DNA from: an uncultured Gaiellaceae bacterium | GTDB taxonomy: Bacteria; Actinomycetota; Thermoleophilia; Gaiellales; Gaiellaceae | Direction: 5' to 3' | DNA: 24,000 nt | Assembly (NCBI GenBank): GCA_963784895.1 | Contig: CAWATM010000017.1 | Coordinates: 157,251 to 181,250 of the forward strand | Part shown: one piece after another, positions 1,816 to 15,655 of the stretch | Numbering within the stretch: position 1 is the stretch's first letter | How the letters are laid out: every line of letters starts with the position of its first letter | Program-made: the position numbers and the translations under genes | Notes under the pieces: generated by a model | The model's database searches: none | Seen by the model: only the letters and a program-made list of their open reading frames with translations | What the model was told of the DNA's origin: nothing

Positions 1816-2298
1816 CTACGTCGGAGGTCTCAGGCGCTTCGCCCACGTCTCGCCCGCGGCACGGCCTTCCGGCGTGGCGAGAAAGTGCTCCAACGGGACG
1901 TGCAGGAACGTCCCCTCGGCCTCCGCGAGCAGCGAATCGACGTCGCGGAGCTCGGCAGCGATCTCGATCCGGCGGCCGCGTTCGCTCGTGACGCGGGCGC
2001 TGACCGCGAGCGGCGTGTTGATCGGAGCCGGCTTGCGGTAGCGGATCGCGATCCGCGCCGTCACGGTCGGAAAGCGGTGCCAGGTCGCGAGCAGGCCGCA
2101 CGCTTCATCGAGGGCCGCGCCGACGATGCCGCCGTGCGCGATCCCGGGACCGCCCTGGTGGTGGACGCCGAACGTGACCGCGGACGAGTAGGCATCGGCG
2201 CCCTCAGCAGCCGGGAGCGCCAGCCGCAGCCCGAGCTCGTGGTCGCCGCAGCCGAAGCAGGACGGGTCGTGATGGGGCGGGATCAGATGGCTCTTTAT
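1816..2298 (-). CDS. PaaI-family hotdog-fold acyl-CoA thioesterase (non-canonical start)
   Basis: This is the C-terminal 160 codons of the 1816..3027 track ORF: HLIPPHHDPSCFGCG...VTFGVHHQGGPGIAHGGIVGAALDEACG. The CFGCG N-terminal motif and GxxHGG plus LDEA core are typical of PaaI/4HBT thioesterases. No ATG/GTG/TTG precedes the conserved region. The 5' end is placed at ATA 2298-2296 (ATAA overlap with the upstream stop). CTG 2286-2284 is the alternative. Confidence 0.75.
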   Translation of the reverse strand: MKSHLIPPHHDPSCFGCGDHELGLRLALPAAEGADAYSSAVTFGVHHQGGPGIAHGGIVGAALDEACGLLATWHRFPTVTARIAIRYRKPAPINTPLAVSARVTSERGRRIEIAAELRDVDSLLAEAEGTFLHVPLEHFLATPEGRAAGETWAKRLRPPT

Positions 2299-3176
2299 GC
2301 AGCGAAGGGCAGCCGGATGTCGGAGACGTCGAGGCCCATGCTCGAGGCCATCCTGATCCCGTCGCGGACGTCTTCCTGCAGGCGCCTGATGTCGGTCTCG
2401 CGCATCACGTTTCCGATCCAGGCGCGTTCCTTCGGCCGCCAGAGTGCATGCTCGACGAAGATCGGCAGCAGGTTGTTGGCCGCCTGGACGAGGCTGTCCT
2501 TCGTTCGCTTGGACGCGCCCTCGAGCAGGACGCGCTCGTACGCGACGCCGGAGCTGTGGTGGATGCCGTCGTCGATTGTGAGCCGGTTGCAGAGATCCTC
2601 GAGCACCGTGCCGCGGGACGAGCGCGCGATCAGGCGGAAGCGAGGGATGATCAGCCGCTCGAAGAAGACCTGCATCTGAAAGACCTTCTCCTCGAGCGTC
2701 TCGGCCTCGAGGGTGATCTTCGCCAGCTCGTCGAGGTACGGGTCGCGCTCCGCGACGCCGCCGGCCTCGTCCGCGAGCTTGAGCCACGCCTCCGTGTGGC
2801 GGGCCTCGTCCTGGACCATCGTGGAGTAGTAGAGCTTCGCCTCCGGGTGCGGCGCGAGGTTGAGCAGCTGGGCCGCCATCTCGACGGCGAACTGATCCGC
2901 CTGCAGCTGCTGCGTGATCACCGACCGCCAGACGGCACGGCGCCGCTCCTTCCGCTCCGCCGAGGCGCCGGCGCGCGTCTCGGGGATCGGCGGGACGTCG
3001 CCCCACGGGAGGTCCCGCACCTGCCACTCCTGTTTCTTCGCCAGCTCGTAGAAGCGGAGCACCCCGCGGCCCTTGTCGTCCCGCGCGGCGTCGTCTGCGG
3101 CCTGCCGCTCCGCCTCGATCAGCGGTGCGTAGGTCGGATCCGCGTTGATCGGCTCGTCGGCCGGCTCGACCGTCAT
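2295..3176 (-). CDS. ferritin-like diiron-carboxylate protein (putative oxygenase)
   Basis: 293 aa counted from ATG 3176 (MTVEPADEP...). This is the believable part of the 2295..3740 track ORF. Ligand-like motifs are FAVEMAAQ, VQDEARH (ExxH), FFERLI and IDDGIHH (DxxH). VQDEARH resembles the VQDEAGH motif of PaaA-type CoA-ester oxygenases. TAAGCT lies 7 nt upstream of the ATG and there is no Shine-Dalgarno. Confidence 0.75.
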   Translation of the reverse strand: MTVEPADEPINADPTYAPLIEAERQAADDAARDDKGRGVLRFYELAKKQEWQVRDLPWGDVPPIPETRAGASAERKERRRAVWRSVITQQLQADQFAVEMAAQLLNLAPHPEAKLYYSTMVQDEARHTEAWLKLADEAGGVAERDPYLDELAKITLEAETLEEKVFQMQVFFERLIIPRFRLIARSSRGTVLEDLCNRLTIDDGIHHSSGVAYERVLLEGASKRTKDSLVQAANNLLPIFVEHALWRPKERAWIGNVMRETDIRRLQEDVRDGIRMASSMGLDVSDIRLPFAA

Positions 3177-3202
3177 CGCGCGAAGCTTAACGCCGCCGGG
3201 TC

Positions 3203-3231
3203 GGTCGGGCCGCGAAGCGGCCCCTTCAGGG
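3203..3231 (-). repeat. GC-rich stem-loop element, copy A (intercistronic, possible terminator or attenuator)
   Basis: Minus-sense sequence is CCCTGAAGGGGCCGCttcGCGGCCCGACC, with a 7-bp stem GGGCCGC/GCGGCCC. It is nearly identical to the element at 15704-15734. It lies between the HMGR-like stop (3244) and the ferritin-like start (3176). Confidence 0.6.
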
Positions 3232-3243
3232 ATCTTGCGCCGA

Positions 3244-4461
3244 CTAGCGCAGGCCGCCGAGCTGGTGGTGGGCCCGGAAGAAGTTCTCCGAACCGGCCGT
3301 CGCCATCGCCGACGAGGCCGAGATCTCGAGCGCGAGCGCGGCAGCGGCGACGATCTGCGCGAAGCGGTGCACCTTGCCGCTGCCGGCGCAGCCGAGCAGC
3401 GCCAGCCAGTCGCGGGCGTACGGGAGGGTCGTGCCGCCGCCGACGGTGCCGACCTCGAGCCCCGGGAACCGGATCGTCGCGTGCAAGCCCCCGTCCCCGG
3501 TCCGGCGCGCCGTGCCGTGCGCCATCGAGCTCGTCCCGACCATGCCGAGGTCCTGCCCGGTGCAGGCGAAGATCGACGCGATCGCCGAGGCGGGAGTAAA
3601 CGCGACCGACTGCATCCCGGACGCGACGGCGCCGTGCGTCCCCGCCCACGAGAGCTCGAGCAGGTCGTCGACGGACGTGCGCAGGACGCGCCGCACCGTT
3701 TCCGCGTCGAGCGTCGCCTCCGCGAGCACCGTCTTCCCATGCCCGGACTGAAAGAACTCGTACGAGGGTTTCTTGTCGCCGCCCATGTTCGCCTCGAGGA
3801 TCGCGCGCTCGGGCTGCACGGGCGCCTGCCGCATGACGTAGCCCATGTTCAGTGCGTAGCTGTTGCGGGTCATCATGTTCGGCCCGCAGGCGTCTCCGGT
3901 CGTCCAGGCCCAGAGCACGTGGCACATCGACCCGACGACGTGTGTCTTCACCTCGCGCAGCTTCGCCCGCTTCGAGAGCGAGGGGTCGTCGAGCGCGGCC
4001 AGGAACGCGCGGAGCTCGTCGAGGGAGCCCTCGAGCCACTTTGCAAGCCGTACGGCATCTGCTGTGTCATTGCAGATAAAGCATGATGCTCGTGTCATTC
4101 TGTCCTGGAGCACGTATGTTCGGAATCCGCCCGACGTCGCCGCCGCCTTCATCCCGCGCGACATCGAGGCGGAGAGGCCGCCCTCGGTGTGCGCCAGCGG
4201 TACCAGCAGCTCCTCCTGCTCACGGCCGGTCTCACGCAGGGTCCCCGCCGGCTCCTCGAGCTCGTACTGCCCGAGCTCGATCACGAGCGGGCCGACGACC
4301 GACACCGGTATGACCGTCGCGCCGGTGTGCGACTCCTGCGCGCGCGACCACGATTCGTCGTCGTGGGCGAGCGGCCCGTCGCCGACGACGTCACGGATCG
4401 CATCGCGCCGCGCCTGGATCGACTCGGCGTCGTTCTTGCGTGGCCAGCGCCGCAGCTCCAT
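3244..4461 (-). CDS. class I hydroxymethylglutaryl-CoA reductase-like protein (soluble catalytic domain only)
   Basis: 405 aa. It carries class-I HMGR motifs in the canonical order: QESHTGATVIPVSVVGPL (ENVIG...PVGVAGPL region), VPLAHTEGGLSASMSRG (TTEGCLVAS), WTTGDACGPNMM (DAMGMNM), GGDKKPS...SGHGKTV (DKKP...GRGKSVV), GLEVGTVGGGT, and C-terminal FFRAHHQL. It lines up end to end with short actinobacterial HMGRs as I remember them. Confidence 0.85.
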   Translation of the reverse strand: MELRRWPRKNDAESIQARRDAIRDVVGDGPLAHDDESWSRAQESHTGATVIPVSVVGPLVIELGQYELEEPAGTLRETGREQEELLVPLAHTEGGLSASMSRGMKAAATSGGFRTYVLQDRMTRASCFICNDTADAVRLAKWLEGSLDELRAFLAALDDPSLSKRAKLREVKTHVVGSMCHVLWAWTTGDACGPNMMTRNSYALNMGYVMRQAPVQPERAILEANMGGDKKPSYEFFQSGHGKTVLAEATLDAETVRRVLRTSVDDLLELSWAGTHGAVASGMQSVAFTPASAIASIFACTGQDLGMVGTSSMAHGTARRTGDGGLHATIRFPGLEVGTVGGGTTLPYARDWLALLGCAGSGKVHRFAQIVAAAALALEISASSAMATAGSENFFRAHHQLGGLR

Positions 4462-4472
4462 GGCTGGGAACC

Positions 4473-5042
4473 CTACGGCCTCGCGCTGCGCAGGCGGCGA
4501 ATGACGCCGCGGACACCGAGCGAAGGCGTCAGCCCGACCACGGTGTGGCGGAGCGGGTAGTCCGTCGGCCGAACTGGAATCCGCAGTTGCGGCTGCGCGG
4601 GCTCAGAGCTCACCCACTCGTTTCCCCACTCGCGGCGGAAACCGGTGCGCGGCAGCGCGTAGATGAGGCCGTCGGTCCATGTTGCCGGAGACGCTGGATC
4701 GCCGAACACCGCCGAGACGTAGAACCGACGGCGGCGCGATCCTCGCCCGATGTGCGTGCAGGCCGTCACCACGCCGTCGACGCAGTCGCGTGCGACGACG
4801 GCGTAGAAGAGCGGCCAGATGCCGTCGTCGCACGCGACCACCGCGAGCAGCTCGGTGTCGAGATCGTGTGCCGGCTGGGGCTCCAGGAGAGTCAGTGTGG
4901 TGTGGTTCGAGCCGTGCAGGAGGAGGCCGTGCTGATCGACGAGGTACGTCAGGAACTCATGAACCGGATACGGCGATCGCGCGACGTCGACCAAGCCGTC
5001 GCGGCCCTGCGCCGAGGCGATCAGCTCCTCGAACGTGCGCAA
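4473..5042 (-). CDS. hypothetical protein (189 aa from TTG 5042; true start uncertain)
   Basis: The ORF has strong GC3 bias and non-repetitive composition (…HEFLTYLVDQHGLLLHGSNHTTLTLLEPQ…IYALPRTGFRREWGNEWV…). I recognise no family. The stop lies 11 nt before the HMGR-like start on the same strand. The in-frame region upstream to about 5135 also looks coding but has no canonical start. Confidence 0.6.
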   Translation of the reverse strand: MRTFEELIASAQGRDGLVDVARSPYPVHEFLTYLVDQHGLLLHGSNHTTLTLLEPQPAHDLDTELLAVVACDDGIWPLFYAVVARDCVDGVVTACTHIGRGSRRRRFYVSAVFGDPASPATWTDGLIYALPRTGFRREWGNEWVSSEPAQPQLRIPVRPTDYPLRHTVVGLTPSLGVRGVIRRLRSARP

Positions 5043-5217
5043 CCGCTCGGCGTCGCGCGTGATCGCCGGCCCTTCCGTGGCGCCGACGAGGTTGAGCCCG
5101 AGCCGCTCGCCGAGCCGCCAGACGCCGATGCCAACCGAACGCAGAAGGCTCAGCGCGACTCGCTGCGATCGTGGCCCCGTGCGCTCGATCGCAGGAAGCT
5201 ACCAGCCGGGTCGGCAC

Positions 5218-14013: not shown

Positions 14014-15655
14014 ATGCGTAAGACGGACTCGGACAGCCGCGTACGACCAGCGACGAGAGGCGCTGTCGAAGGCTCGCCGGGAGCCGGCGCCGGCCAGGGG
14101 CCGCGAGTCCTCGTGCGGGAGGCGATCGCCCCCGCGGGAGTCGAGCTGCTGCGCTCGCGTTTCGATGTCGACGAGGACAGTGACTCGCCGCTCGACGAGA
14201 TCATCGCCGGCTACGACGCGATCGTGATCCGCTCGGCGACGAAGCTGACCGCGGCTGTGATCGACCGCGCCGATCGGCTGAAGGTGATCGGCCGCGCCGG
14301 CGTCGGCGTGGACAACGTCGACGTCGACGCGGCGACGCGGCGCGGGATCGTCGTCGCGAACGCGCCCGACTCGACTGTGGTCTCGGCCGCGGAGCACACG
14401 ATCGGCCTTCTGGTCGCCCTCGCCCGCAACATCCCGCAGGCGCATGCGGCGCTGAAGGCACGGCCGCTGGGAGCGCTCGCGCTGGGGTGGGATCGAACTC
14501 GCCGACAAGACCCTCGGCGTTCTCGGCTTCGGCCGGATCGGGCGGCAGGTCGCGCGCCGCGCGCTCGGCCTCGGGATGCGTGTGATCGGCTACGACCCGT
14601 TCGTGGCGCCGGAGCGCTTCCGCGAGCTCGGGGCGGAGCACGCACACGATCCGGCGGACGTGTTCGAGGCGGCCGACTTTCTCACCCTGCACCTGCCGCT
14701 CACCGAGGAGACCCGCCACTTCGTCGACGCGGGCGCGCTGGGCCGGATGCGCGACGGCGTTCGGATCGTCAACGCGGCGCGCGGCGAGCTCGTCGACGAG
14801 GGCGCGCTCGCGCAGGCCGTACGCGACGGCAAGGTCGCGGGGGCCGCGCTCGACGTCTTCTCGGCCGAGCCGTACACGGGTGAGCTGCTCGAGCTCGAGA
14901 ACGTCGTCGTGACGCCGCATCTCGCCGCCTCGACAGAGGAGGCGCAGGACCGTGCGGGCGTAATCGTCGCCGAGCAGGTCGTCGCCGCGCTCGAGGGCGG
15001 CCTGGTCTCGAACGCACTCAACATCCCGATCGTCGGCGCCGAGGATCTGGAGCTGCTCGGTCCCTACATCCCGCTCGCGGCCAAGCTGGGACGGCTCGCG
15101 GTCGAGCTCGCCGGCGGTCACCCGCGCCGGATCGCGCTCTCCTTCAACGGCGCGATCGCCGACCACGACACGCGCCTGCTCACGGTCGCCGCGCTCAACG
15201 GCGCGTTCCAGGGCCGTGTCGAGCAGGCCGTCAACTACGTCAACGCACCGGTGATCGCGGCCGAGCGCGGGATTGAGGTGAGCGAGGAGCGGTCGGCGCG
15301 GACGCGGGACTACACCAGCCTCGTCACGGTCGCCGTCGACGACGTCCAGGTCTCGGGAACGATCATCGGGCCCGAGCATCGCCACTTCCTCGCCGGTGCG
15401 CTCGGCTTCGCGATCGACCTGCAACTCTCGCCGCGGATGGTCTTCTTCCGCTACGACGACATTCCCGGCGTGATCGGCCGGGTCGGAACGATGTTCGGCG
15501 AGGCGGGAGTGAACATCGCGAACATGGCCGTCTCGAGGACGAAGGAAGGCGGCAAGGCGCTGATGGCGCTGGCCATCGACTCCGAGCCGCCCGCGGAGCT
15601 CGTCGACCGCGTCCGAGGGGAGGGCTTCGACGATGCGCAGTTCATCACCCTCTAA
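14014..15655 (+). pseudogene. serA: D-3-phosphoglycerate dehydrogenase with the reading frame broken by a 1-nt insertion near 14461
   Basis: The frame from ATG 14014 (SD GGAGAGGA) gives ...IGRAGVGVDNVDVDAATRRGIVVANAP...NIPQAHAALKA, then nonsense. The +1 frame from 14462 continues GRWERSRWGGIELADKTLGVLGFGRIGRQVARRALGLGMRVIGYDPF... through the catalytic, ASB and ACT domains to stop 15655. Joined, the two parts make about 546 aa. Confidence 0.85.

Follow-up and report, generated by a model that had tools for sequence, protein, structure and literature searches.

Why do soil Gaiellales keep what appears to be a rebuilt HMG-CoA reductase (HMGR), an enzyme of the cholesterol pathway, beside a putative iron/manganese oxidase of an undescribed family? 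The question is raised by a 24,000-nucleotide stretch of DNA from an uncultured Gaiellaceae bacterium (hereafter the window), for which a sequence-only reading had proposed a four-gene cluster and an acyl-CoA tailoring pathway. The findings suggest a pathway of acyl-CoA or lipid metabolism that is still uncharacterised, and not isoprenoid synthesis.

Gene Content of the Window

The four minus-strand open reading frames (ORFs) at 4473–5042, 3244–4461, 2295–3176, and 1816–2298 were all open as the sequence-only reading described, with coding-like third-codon-position G+C (GC3, 0.85–0.94); its intergenic gaps of 11 and 67 nt were correct, and all the motifs that it quoted (TEGGLSAS, GDACGPNM, DKKP..GHGKTV, VGTVGGGT, VQDEARH, CFGCG, and GIAHGG) were found. 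The other scanned genes include DsbA/DsbB, FolD, SerA, IlvE-like, DegT-like, and a PBP. Among the other scanned genes of the 24 kb (a few smaller ORFs lay outside the scan), none belonged to the mevalonate (MVA) or MEP pathway, in agreement with the earlier statement that mevalonate genes are absent. GatC, GatA, and GatB owe their names to their own sequences and to the Pfam labels of related loci.

A Reductase-Family Enzyme With a Rebuilt Pocket

The 405-aa protein encoded at 3244–4461 (minus strand) is a class-I-like, CoA-dependent oxidoreductase of the HMGR family, as its hallmark blocks had suggested. It matched Pfam PF00368 (HMG-CoA_red) with an E-value of 5.3e-80 and 269.6 bits (cut-off 27), its best PDB match was 6HR7 (E 3e-40), and it shares the PF00368 fold of class I HMGRs (human 1DQ8, Methanothermococcus 6HR7, Streptomyces) at ∼30–36% identity, as well as their cis-loop DKK, the CoA contacts S565/R568, and the NADPH contacts D653 and N658. 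All four catalytic residues are retained (E93/K230/D304/H398, equivalent to Glu559/Lys691/Asp767/His866) and do not vary among the 119 family members, nor do the equivalents of S565, R568, and R590; those of S626/R627 at the NADPH site are also kept. The family chemistry, in which a thioester and a primary alcohol are interconverted in a CoA-dependent, NADP(H)-linked transfer of four electrons, appears to be kept.

With the functional roles of HMGR pocket residues taken from the literature (PMC7503714), the HMG pocket of the window protein is remodelled at E223, A273/G274, T289, S292, and A382, of which E223 would be odd in a pocket for a purely hydrophobic substrate. The replacements S684E, K735A/G, N750A, H752T, N755S/T, L853A, and R702H are fixed in all 119 sequences. 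Of the five HMG-pocket residues without a catalytic role in that study, four (S684, K735, N755, and L853) are affected, together with H752; the fifth, K692, is kept. The replaced residues, these five included, are retained in every bona fide HMGR compared, whether human, plant, archaeal, or from a Streptomyces MVA operon. In addition, the protein fell far below the cut-off of the NCBIfam equivalog TIGR00533 (191.3 vs. 441.8 bits), and it scored 193, 160, and 158 bits against homologues from non-MVA contexts but 93 bits against an actinobacterial MVA-operon enzyme. By these alignments, and in line with the earlier view that this is no ordinary HMGR, the protein does not appear to be a standard HMG-CoA reductase: the tetrad is intact, whereas the HMG-carboxylate pocket is predicted to be rebuilt, its contacts to the carboxylate end of HMG having given way mostly to smaller side chains, with one Glu gained.

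The strong Pfam match, the intact tetrad, and the public annotation of the protein as HMGR would also suit a real HMG-CoA reductase, be it one step of a mevalonate pathway with dispersed genes or an orphan enzyme with HMG-CoA or mevalonate as its substrate; the ferritin-like and thioesterase genes would then be unrelated syntenic neighbours. We consider this unlikely given the fixed pocket replacements, the conservation of the same residues in bona fide enzymes, and the low equivalog score; moreover, the cultured relatives Conexibacter and Rubrobacter were scored as MEP-only (Table S1 of PMC13001223). The loss of Lys735 and the gain of Glu at 684 also amount to a charge swap, which might indicate a CoA ester that is small and either polar or cationic, such as an amino-acyl-CoA, handled in a small-molecule pathway together with an AurF-type N-oxygenase; however, since the pocket residues have mostly become smaller, a larger rather than a smaller substrate is suggested.

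A Ferritin-Like Protein Closest to R2lox

The 293-aa product of 2295–3176 (minus strand) is a ferritin-like dimetal-carboxylate protein of a small family without a Pfam model, and all Pfam and NCBIfam matches of the window protein were sub-threshold (NF006200, 17.7 bits; cut-off 194). Its profile matched R2lox best in the PDB (E 1e-6), and Foldseek with its AF2 model (pLDDT 88.4) returned R2/R2lox matches with TM-scores of 0.5–0.65, ∼0.6 for the best R2lox fold match. The earlier ligand pattern of E/ExxH/E/DxxH stood in that the predicted metal ligands are in place, but the first is D94 rather than a Glu (E99 is not conserved): the proposed ligands D94, E124, H127, E173, D203, and H206 are invariant in A2 and align with R2lox E69, E102, H105, E167, E202, and H205, giving a six-residue carboxylate/His site at equivalent positions. 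Both proteins also share an N-terminal YE-AK--W--D motif. Unlike R2lox, to which it is ∼15% identical, the window protein has Asp for Glu at two ligand positions and lacks the ether cross-link Val and Tyr, A97 aligning with V72 of GkR2loxI and no Tyr being found within residues 160–172 for the cross-link Tyr (Y162 in GkR2loxI); SaR2loxII is likewise without the Val-Tyr cross-link (PMC9314684). On profile and fold, the protein appears to represent a separate, small R2lox/R2-like family, with R2lox as the closest characterised one. Long-chain hydroxy fatty acids co-purify with R2lox proteins, for which alkane hydroxylase activity has been reported or implicated (PMC9314684, PMC10867098).

Other assignments fared less well. 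Ribonucleotide reductase R2 was rejected because W131 stands at H127+4 in place of the radical-bearing Tyr, and Pfam Ribonuc_red_sm reached 16.1 bits (cut-off 33.6). The PaaA/BoxB-like label of the sequence-only reading had to be replaced: the catalytic subunit of the phenylacetyl-CoA epoxidase PaaABCE is also ferritin-like and di-iron, but R2lox/R2 is nearer by sequence profile and fold, the window protein had no PaaA_PaaC (PF05138) match at E ≤ 0.01, and PaaB, PaaC, PaaD, and PaaE are absent from the window. PaaA_PaaC matched only 5 of 24 family members (E ∼7e-4); the automatic JGI label of the family is PaaA. An AurF-type enzyme, as the small polar substrate would entail, is suggested by three distant family members that match Pfam AurF at 1.4e-12, whereas the window protein has no such match, comes closest to R2lox/R2 in both structure and profile, and the extra His of the AurF ligand set is missing from its sequence. 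No reductase or ferredoxin partner for an oxidase was found in the cluster. A Burkholderia relative (25% identical) lies among genes for ACP, KAS III, AMP-ligase, and acyl-CoA dehydrogenase.

The Thioesterase and Its Translation Start

The third product (155 aa, 1816–2283, minus strand, GC3 0.89) is a hotdog-fold acyl-CoA thioesterase, with a match to Pfam 4HBT (PF03061) at E 1e-9 and 38.9 bits (cut-off 20.6) and PDB matches to 2OV9 (1e-13), THEM4 (2e-8), and THEM5 (2e-5). Its GIAHGG...LDEA aligns with GFIHGG...IDAT of THEM4, and it has the HGG...D active-site motif and 4HBT hotdog fold common to THEM4/THEM5, Rhodococcus 2OV9, and PaaI. The hotdog family had thus been recognised correctly, but the protein is THEM4/5-like and not PaaI, for which the equivalog TIGR02286 gave 22.1 bits (cut-off 118.9). 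THEM4 and THEM5 hydrolyse medium- and long-chain acyl-CoAs, which further argues against a small polar substrate, a reading that we regard as very improbable overall.

The window protein is much shorter N-terminally than THEM4 and 2OV9, and it differs from these, THEM5, and PaaI in its non-canonical start codon. The start previously placed at 2298 is doubtful, this codon being ATA, not ATG/GTG/TTG, and overlapping the upstream TAA, and the 4-nt overlap with the ferritin-like gene would be valid only if ATA initiated. The conserved N-terminus (IPPHHDPSCFGCG) begins instead at ATC 2283–2281, 11 nt past the ferritin-like stop. A canonical start codon is absent from the thioesterase in 41 of 42 loci, and its beginning always lies 2–29 nt from the upstream stop, a combination consistent with translational coupling to the gene before it.

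Gene Linkage Across the Gaiellales

Of 78 Gaiellales loci that could be evaluated at species level, 73 have the HMGR-like and ferritin-like genes side by side, in one of two arrangements: co-oriented (42 loci, median gap 24 nt) and divergent (31 loci, 82 nt). The ferritin-like gene has switched strand and side with its adjacency kept, which argues against unrelated neighbours; in five loci it occurs without an HMGR-like gene nearby. A comparison of the 73 neighbourhoods by ORF clustering showed no MVA gene next to the pair, and the HMGR-like gene differs from those of class I HMGRs in lying outside a mevalonate operon, paired with a predicted dimetal oxidase. The thioesterase accompanies 43 of the 73 pairs and is missing from 30; it lies 3′ of the ferritin-like gene in 38 of the 42 co-oriented loci, and immediately after the HMGR-like gene in locus L059.

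Linkage did not extend beyond the order, as none of the ferritin-like relatives outside Gaiellales (30–51% identity) adjoins an HMGR, and FolD-GatCAB synteny is equally conserved within it. Both points favour the housekeeping-neighbour view of a true HMGR, and synteny alone may account for some of the linkage. Of the proposed four-gene cluster, three genes form a conserved unit and the 189-aa gene lies outside it. By homology and context, the core of this unit appears to be a Gaiellales-specific gene pair, one encoding an enzyme of the HMGR fold and the other a predicted dimetal oxidase (Fe/Fe or Mn/Fe) akin to R2lox, which in the Gaiellaceae branch has been extended into an operon by the THEM4/5-like thioesterase.

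Possible Pathway

Function is argued throughout from homology and gene context, and the substrate and reaction direction are inferred from these. Our tentative reading, favoured but well short of assured, is a module particular to this lineage, which would process an acyl-CoA or alcohol other than HMG, probably of long chain length, through dimetal oxidation, an HMGR-like link, and thioester hydrolysis. The substrate would carry a larger acyl or alkyl group without a terminal carboxylate, unlike HMG-CoA, and would most likely be an aliphatic compound of medium or long chain length; the R2lox-like oxidase, the THEM4/5-like thioesterase, and the Burkholderia relative among acyl-chain genes share this lipid theme. 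The dimetal protein would carry out an O2-dependent oxidation (hydroxylation) of the aliphatic chain, the HMGR-like enzyme would link the primary alcohol and the acyl-CoA, and the thioesterase, where present, would hydrolyse the CoA ester. An oxidative order (hydroxylation, oxidation of the alcohol to acyl-CoA, hydrolysis) is preferred only slightly over the reductive direction, as the sole one that passes the product of every step on to the following enzyme. The sequence proposed earlier (reduce, oxygenate, release) is chemically awkward, because four-electron reduction of the thioester leaves no CoA ester for the thioesterase. The earlier proposal is partly supported, in its non-standard HMGR and the linked ferritin-like gene, but not in its order, its 189-aa member, or its PaaA and PaaI labels. 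Its view that this is probably not isoprenoid biosynthesis agrees with the rebuilt pocket and the lack of mevalonate genes nearby, and the pathway is inferred not to be the mevalonate pathway.

A precedent for an HMGR fold running from alcohol to acyl-CoA is Pseudomonas mevalonii MvaA with HMG-CoA lyase, whose operon, too, has an enzyme consuming the CoA ester; it differs in that MvaA is class II and acts on mevalonate, the partner is a lyase rather than a thioesterase, and there is no oxidase. Against the oxidative order, class-I HMGRs normally run reductively, and retention of the S626/R627 equivalents favours a reductive, biosynthetic direction. Possible, although we doubt it, is a route close to the earlier proposal that would start with reduction of a fatty acyl-CoA by the HMGR-like enzyme, to the aldehyde or alcohol; the dimetal enzyme would then deformylate this product to a hydrocarbon, like aldehyde-deformylating oxygenase (ADO), or hydroxylate or desaturate it, and the thioesterase would serve as a side-branch or in proofreading. 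HMGR enzymes, however, normally do not release the aldehyde, and the thioesterase, though apparently translationally coupled to the operon, would compete for the substrate of the reductase. In the cyanobacterial AAR/ADO pair, too, reduction of a thioester is combined with a ferritin-like di-iron enzyme whose target is a long aliphatic chain, and acyl-ACP reductase (AAR) passing aldehydes to ADO is a discussed precedent (PMC9314684), but its reductase fold is unrelated and it has no thioesterase. Two distant members of the ferritin-like family match Pfam Ald_deCOase (1.4e-5), whereas the window protein itself has no such match or ADO signature, and ADO activity was not observed for R2lox from either M. 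tuberculosis or S. erythraea (PMC9314684).

The Accessory Gene

The 189-aa protein had no match in Pfam, NCBIfam, or PADLOC, and its AF2 model (pLDDT 88.7) had no significant PDB fold match; its 350 homologues are restricted to Thermoleophilia-type MAGs. Contrary to its earlier inclusion in the cluster, the gene occurs with only 7 of the 73 HMGR-like/ferritin-like pairs, and homologues also sit elsewhere in unrelated contexts without HMGR, so it is best described as accessory. The frame is open at 5042–4473 as first described, but is probably longer at the N-terminus: the homologues carry ∼50 extra N-terminal residues, which are encoded in frame in the window, with an ATC (5189–5187) at the position of their Met. 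The minus-strand gene would then span 4473–5189 and encode ∼238 aa, rather than the 189 aa counted from TTG 5042.

Gene Content and Family Assignments

The window has a G+C content of ~70%, and the nearest relatives of its proteins are in Gaiellaceae and Gaiellales MAGs (72-100% identity). The four minus-strand ORFs that the sequence-only reading had proposed as an acyl-CoA tailoring unit, encoding a 189-aa protein (4473-5042), an HMGR-like protein (3244-4461, 405 aa), a ferritin-like protein (2295-3176, 293 aa), and a hotdog-fold thioesterase (1816-2283/2298), are real, with coding-type G+C at third codon positions (GC3, 0.85-0.94); the gaps of 11 and 67 nt and every motif quoted in that reading were also right. 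The HMGR-like protein matched Pfam HMG-CoA_red (E = 5e-80) and scored 191 bits vs. the 441.8-bit cut-off of the NCBI HMGR equivalog, the thioesterase matched 4HBT (E = 1e-9), the ferritin-like protein gave sub-threshold matches only (MiaE, 9e-4; R2, 7e-3; R2lox, the R2-like ligand-binding oxidases, 2e-3), and the 189-aa protein had no match in family searches. Further genes scanned were those for DsbA/DsbB, FolD, SerA, an IlvE-like protein, a DegT-like protein, and a PBP, and GatC, GatA, and GatB were identified by sequence and by related loci; no mevalonate or MEP genes occurred among the scanned or recognised window genes. Scans for riboswitches, promoters, and terminators gave no matches, nor did defence-system models, and no literature was found on this gene combination or on Gaiella isoprenoid metabolism. 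The serA gene (D-3-phosphoglycerate dehydrogenase; 14014-15655, plus strand) is split into two overlapping frames (14014-14883 and 14576-15655) by a frameshift or an assembly indel, and the window may contain indel errors.

Conservation and Gene Order

A pattern scan for ferritin-like relatives, covering one genome per species, returned 469 stretches, the best 80 of which were all from Gaiellales-type MAGs. When the 10-kb flanks of these best 80 were searched with the window proteins, 78 loci were evaluable, and the HMGR-like gene adjoined the ferritin-like gene in 73 of them. Two arrangements were seen. In 42 loci, HMGR, ferritin, and, if present, thioesterase genes were co-oriented in that order (median HMGR-ferritin gap, 24 nt) and divergent from folD-gatCAB; in 31 loci, the HMGR gene was divergent from the ferritin-like gene (median gap, 82 nt), which headed folD-gatCAB, and any thioesterase gene lay 3′ of HMGR. 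The ferritin-like gene thus switched strand and side while retaining its adjacency to HMGR. The thioesterase was found in 38 of the co-oriented and five of the divergent loci. The pair is conserved, often with a coupled thioesterase, and its linkage is strong, yet limited to one order with high housekeeping synteny. This neighbourhood analysis upheld the proposed association of these genes, except that the 189-aa gene was present in only seven loci and its ~60%-identity homologues lay in unrelated neighbourhoods; the four-gene unit is ruled out, and the 189-aa gene is accessory.

In five Gaiellales loci (L046, L047, L051, L052, and L080), a ferritin-like gene of 70-75% identity had no HMGR-like gene within reach and was surrounded by unrelated membrane and housekeeping genes. 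The ferritin-like family has very few members outside Gaiellales (487 proteins at E ≤ 1e-3 among 1.84 billion representative proteins, with many top-scoring matches far shorter than the query), and no HMGR gene was found beside ferritin-like relatives of 30-51% identity at the loci examined. Two predicted ORFs were considered as Rosetta-stone HMGR-ferritin or ferritin-thioesterase fusions and rejected: P0012 (697 aa) results from over-extension of an ORF call, its N-terminal part being unlike HMGR and probably antisense FolD read-through, and the contig that carries P0218 (451 aa) is noisy, with fragmented adjoining genes. The HMGR-ferritin spacer (3177-3243, minus strand) is 67 nt here vs. 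~20 nt in most relatives and holds a GGGCCGC-UUCG-GCGGCCC hairpin, the stability of which is no better than that of shuffled sequence (z = +0.77).

An HMGR-Like Enzyme With Intact Catalytic Residues and a Rebuilt Pocket

HMG-CoA reductase is among the most studied enzymes, and to our knowledge no member of the fold has a proven substrate besides HMG-CoA or mevalonate. An alignment was made of 119 family members with the human, Arabidopsis, and Methanothermococcus enzymes and a Streptomyces enzyme from a complete mvk-mvaD-pmk-fni-HMGR-HMGS operon. The catalytic residues are in place: human E559, K691, D767, and H866 correspond to window E93, K230, D304, and H398, all invariant among the 119 members. 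An apparent loss of the catalytic histidine (H to N) concerned the H861 position and was discarded. Equivalents of S565, R568, R590, D690, and K692 are retained, as are the NADPH contacts S626, R627 (as K/R), D653, N658, and V805.

The HMG-site residues listed in PMC7503714 include the non-catalytic S684, K735, N755, and L853. In the HMGR-like family these are swapped and fixed (S684 to E, K735 to A/G, N755 to S/T, L853 to A), and H752 to T, N750 to A, and R702 to H are likewise fixed; the original residues are all present in the four bona fide HMGRs. In statin-complex structures, the HMG carboxylate forms its salt bridge with K735. The swaps thus leave a pocket minus a cation, plus an anion, and with mostly smaller side chains. 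As judged from these residues, the thioester/alcohol redox machinery is intact and the acyl pocket rebuilt, and the substrate would be larger than HMG and without a terminal carboxylate.

An acidic residue at 684 and no lysine at 735 are also seen in three further class-I-like homologues outside mevalonate operons: a Vibrio “orphan” HMGR (L092, 2848-4110), a Streptomyces fusion of an HMGR and an APH kinase (L095, 5425-8199) adjacent to a GH3 ligase and DUF6182, and a Brevibacillus homologue (L094, 5617-11831) followed by a UbiA prenyltransferase, a PEP-utilising kinase, and DUF3419. Against the window protein the three scored 193, 160, and 158 bits, and the Streptomyces operon enzyme 93 bits. 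Homologues with this signature may constitute a subfamily that has gone unrecognised and that uses a substrate other than HMG.

A Ferritin-Like Protein Nearest to R2lox

The ferritin-like protein was predicted by AlphaFold with a pLDDT of 88.4 from a 24-sequence alignment, and Foldseek matched this predicted fold to RNR R2 and R2lox proteins in the PDB (TM ~0.5-0.65, E ~1e-4). In a profile search of PDB sequences, R2lox proteins came first (Geobacillus, 1e-6; Sulfolobus, 9e-6), followed by RNR R2 (5e-3), with MiaE (0.14) and sMMO (0.3) far behind; PaaA was absent from the results. The PaaA/BoxB identity suggested earlier, which also had no Pfam match, is therefore rejected. In the R2lox alignment, the six metal ligands are matched by D94, E124/H127, E173, and D203/H206, all invariant in the Gaiellales family. 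The protein differs from RNR R2 in having W131 in place of the radical tyrosine, and from R2lox in lacking the cross-link residues (A97; no Tyr in residues 160-172). Pfam matches of single distant members (AurF, 1e-12; ADO, 1e-5; PaaA, 7e-4; R2, 1e-6) show only that the family sits among substrate-oxidising ferritin-like enzymes. On homology, the protein is a predicted dimetal oxidase nearest to R2lox.

The contexts of distant family members (recA, tgt-miaA, a P450/aminotransferase region) had no shared theme. Relatives of 37-55% identity in low-GC organisms (L084, 4417-5385; L086, 10001-10894) have tgt, an aminoacyl-tRNA synthetase gene, MGMT, and miaA within a few kb. Since the two loci have common synteny, the miaA proximity counts as one observation in a single lineage, and a link to MiaE-like tRNA isopentenyl-adenosine hydroxylation is not supported beyond it. 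A Burkholderia ferritin-like protein (L093, 7893-8876; about 26% identical over residues 41-219) has a fatty-acyl tailoring context, its cluster also encoding an AMP-ligase, ACP, KAS III, a PLP decarboxylase, and an acyl-CoA dehydrogenase.

A Thioesterase Without a Canonical Start Codon

The PaaI identity given in the sequence-only reading is ruled out for the thioesterase, which scored 22 bits vs. 119 for PaaI and among solved structures is most closely related to Rhodococcus 2OV9 (1e-13) and to human THEM4 (2e-8) and THEM5 (2e-5). Its conserved sequence starts sharply at IPPHHDPxCFGCG, with an ATC or ATT isoleucine codon in 40 of 42 loci that sits 2-29 nt past the stop of the upstream gene, whichever gene that is. 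An ATG, GTG, or TTG start was missing in 41 of the 42 (window 1816-2298, minus strand; L002-L043, L059, and L062), the exception being L062, where a GTG overlaps the upstream stop; the adjoining genes start with ATG or GTG throughout (ferritin, 40/40; GatC, 61/61). The position of the upstream stop could be assigned in 38 loci, and in 28 of these it is overlapped by ATA, CTG, or GTG (ATAG, ATAA, CTGA, GTGA). The pattern recurs in several independent MAG studies with apparently different assemblers, as suggested by contig record names, so an assembly artefact is unlikely. A programmed -1 frameshift joining ferritin-like protein and thioesterase was also considered and rejected: no slippery site is conserved, five loci have the thioesterase in the +1 frame, and in L059 and L062 it follows other genes. 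The pattern points instead to termination-reinitiation at a near-cognate codon, which would couple production of the thioesterase to translation of the preceding gene. The non-canonical start probably contributes to gene callers missing, mis-starting, or merging the thioesterase (e.g., in a 403-aa ORF).

Possible Function and Significance

All functional statements are based on homology and gene context. We infer a common target of the three proteins, a single non-HMG compound that is probably a long-chain aliphatic. Long-chain hydroxy fatty acids co-purify with R2lox proteins, hexadecane induces R2lox in a haloarchaeon, and one R2lox is reported to be an alkane hydroxylase (PMC9314684, PMC10867098). 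The dimetal protein would hydroxylate the chain, the HMGR-like enzyme would convert the alcohol to acyl-CoA, and the thioesterase would hydrolyse the acyl-CoA; no other linear sequence of these steps has every product serve as substrate for the following enzyme. A precedent for this direction is the oxidative HMGR of P. mevalonii; the retained NADPH site favours the reductive one, so the oxidative direction is held weakly. The view that the cluster serves acyl-CoA tailoring and not isoprenoid synthesis survives in outline, without its four-gene membership, PaaA/PaaI assignments, and reduce-oxygenate-release order. Table S1 of PMC13001223, which does not include Gaiella, gives Conexibacter and Rubrobacter as MEP-only.

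It is conceivable, if improbable, that these elements combine into an ATP-independent route, the HMGR fold having taken a non-mevalonate job. An R2lox-type Mn/Fe or Fe/Fe hydroxylase would convert an aliphatic chain end to a primary alcohol, which the HMGR-like enzyme would take directly to acyl-CoA, alone replacing alcohol dehydrogenase, aldehyde dehydrogenase, and acyl-CoA ligase, and the translationally coupled thioesterase would provide optional release. The Gaiellales enzyme would then be an extreme member of an unrecognised acidic-684/no-Lys-735 class-I subfamily that includes the long-puzzling Vibrio “orphan” HMGRs and the Brevibacillus and Streptomyces cluster homologues.

Intact catalytic machinery combined with a systematically rebuilt pocket would make this HMGR-like family, which is conserved in hundreds of Gaiellales species abundant in soil, a concrete and testable example of neofunctionalisation, and a non-HMG family could explain “orphan” HMGR genes in MEP-pathway bacteria. 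The ferritin-like protein defines a family without a Pfam or NCBIfam model that adjoins R2lox in relatedness; as the physiological function of the R2lox group is still debated, a fixed genomic partner offers a handle on that question. The labels currently assigned by automatic annotation, “HMG-CoA reductase (NADPH)” and “phenylacetyl-CoA epoxidase,” would mislead readers of Gaiellales MAGs into assuming mevalonate and phenylacetate metabolism.

The Accessory Protein

Homologues of the 189-aa protein are longer by a conserved stretch of ~50 aa at the N terminus (MKRTGPL..WRLGERLG..ATEGP), which window 5042-5189 (minus strand) encodes in frame with ATC (5189-5187) at the homologues’ Met. Either the ATC is a second non-canonical start, or the start codon has mutated and TTG 5042 is left to serve as the start. 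Fold prediction for 4473-5042 gave a confident alpha/beta model (pLDDT 88.7) with no significant match in the PDB (best, rifampicin ADP-ribosyltransferase Arr-2; E = 0.38, TM 0.35-0.43). Invariant LLHGSN, ACDDGIWP, and GFRREWG.EWV motifs suggest that the accessory protein is an enzyme.
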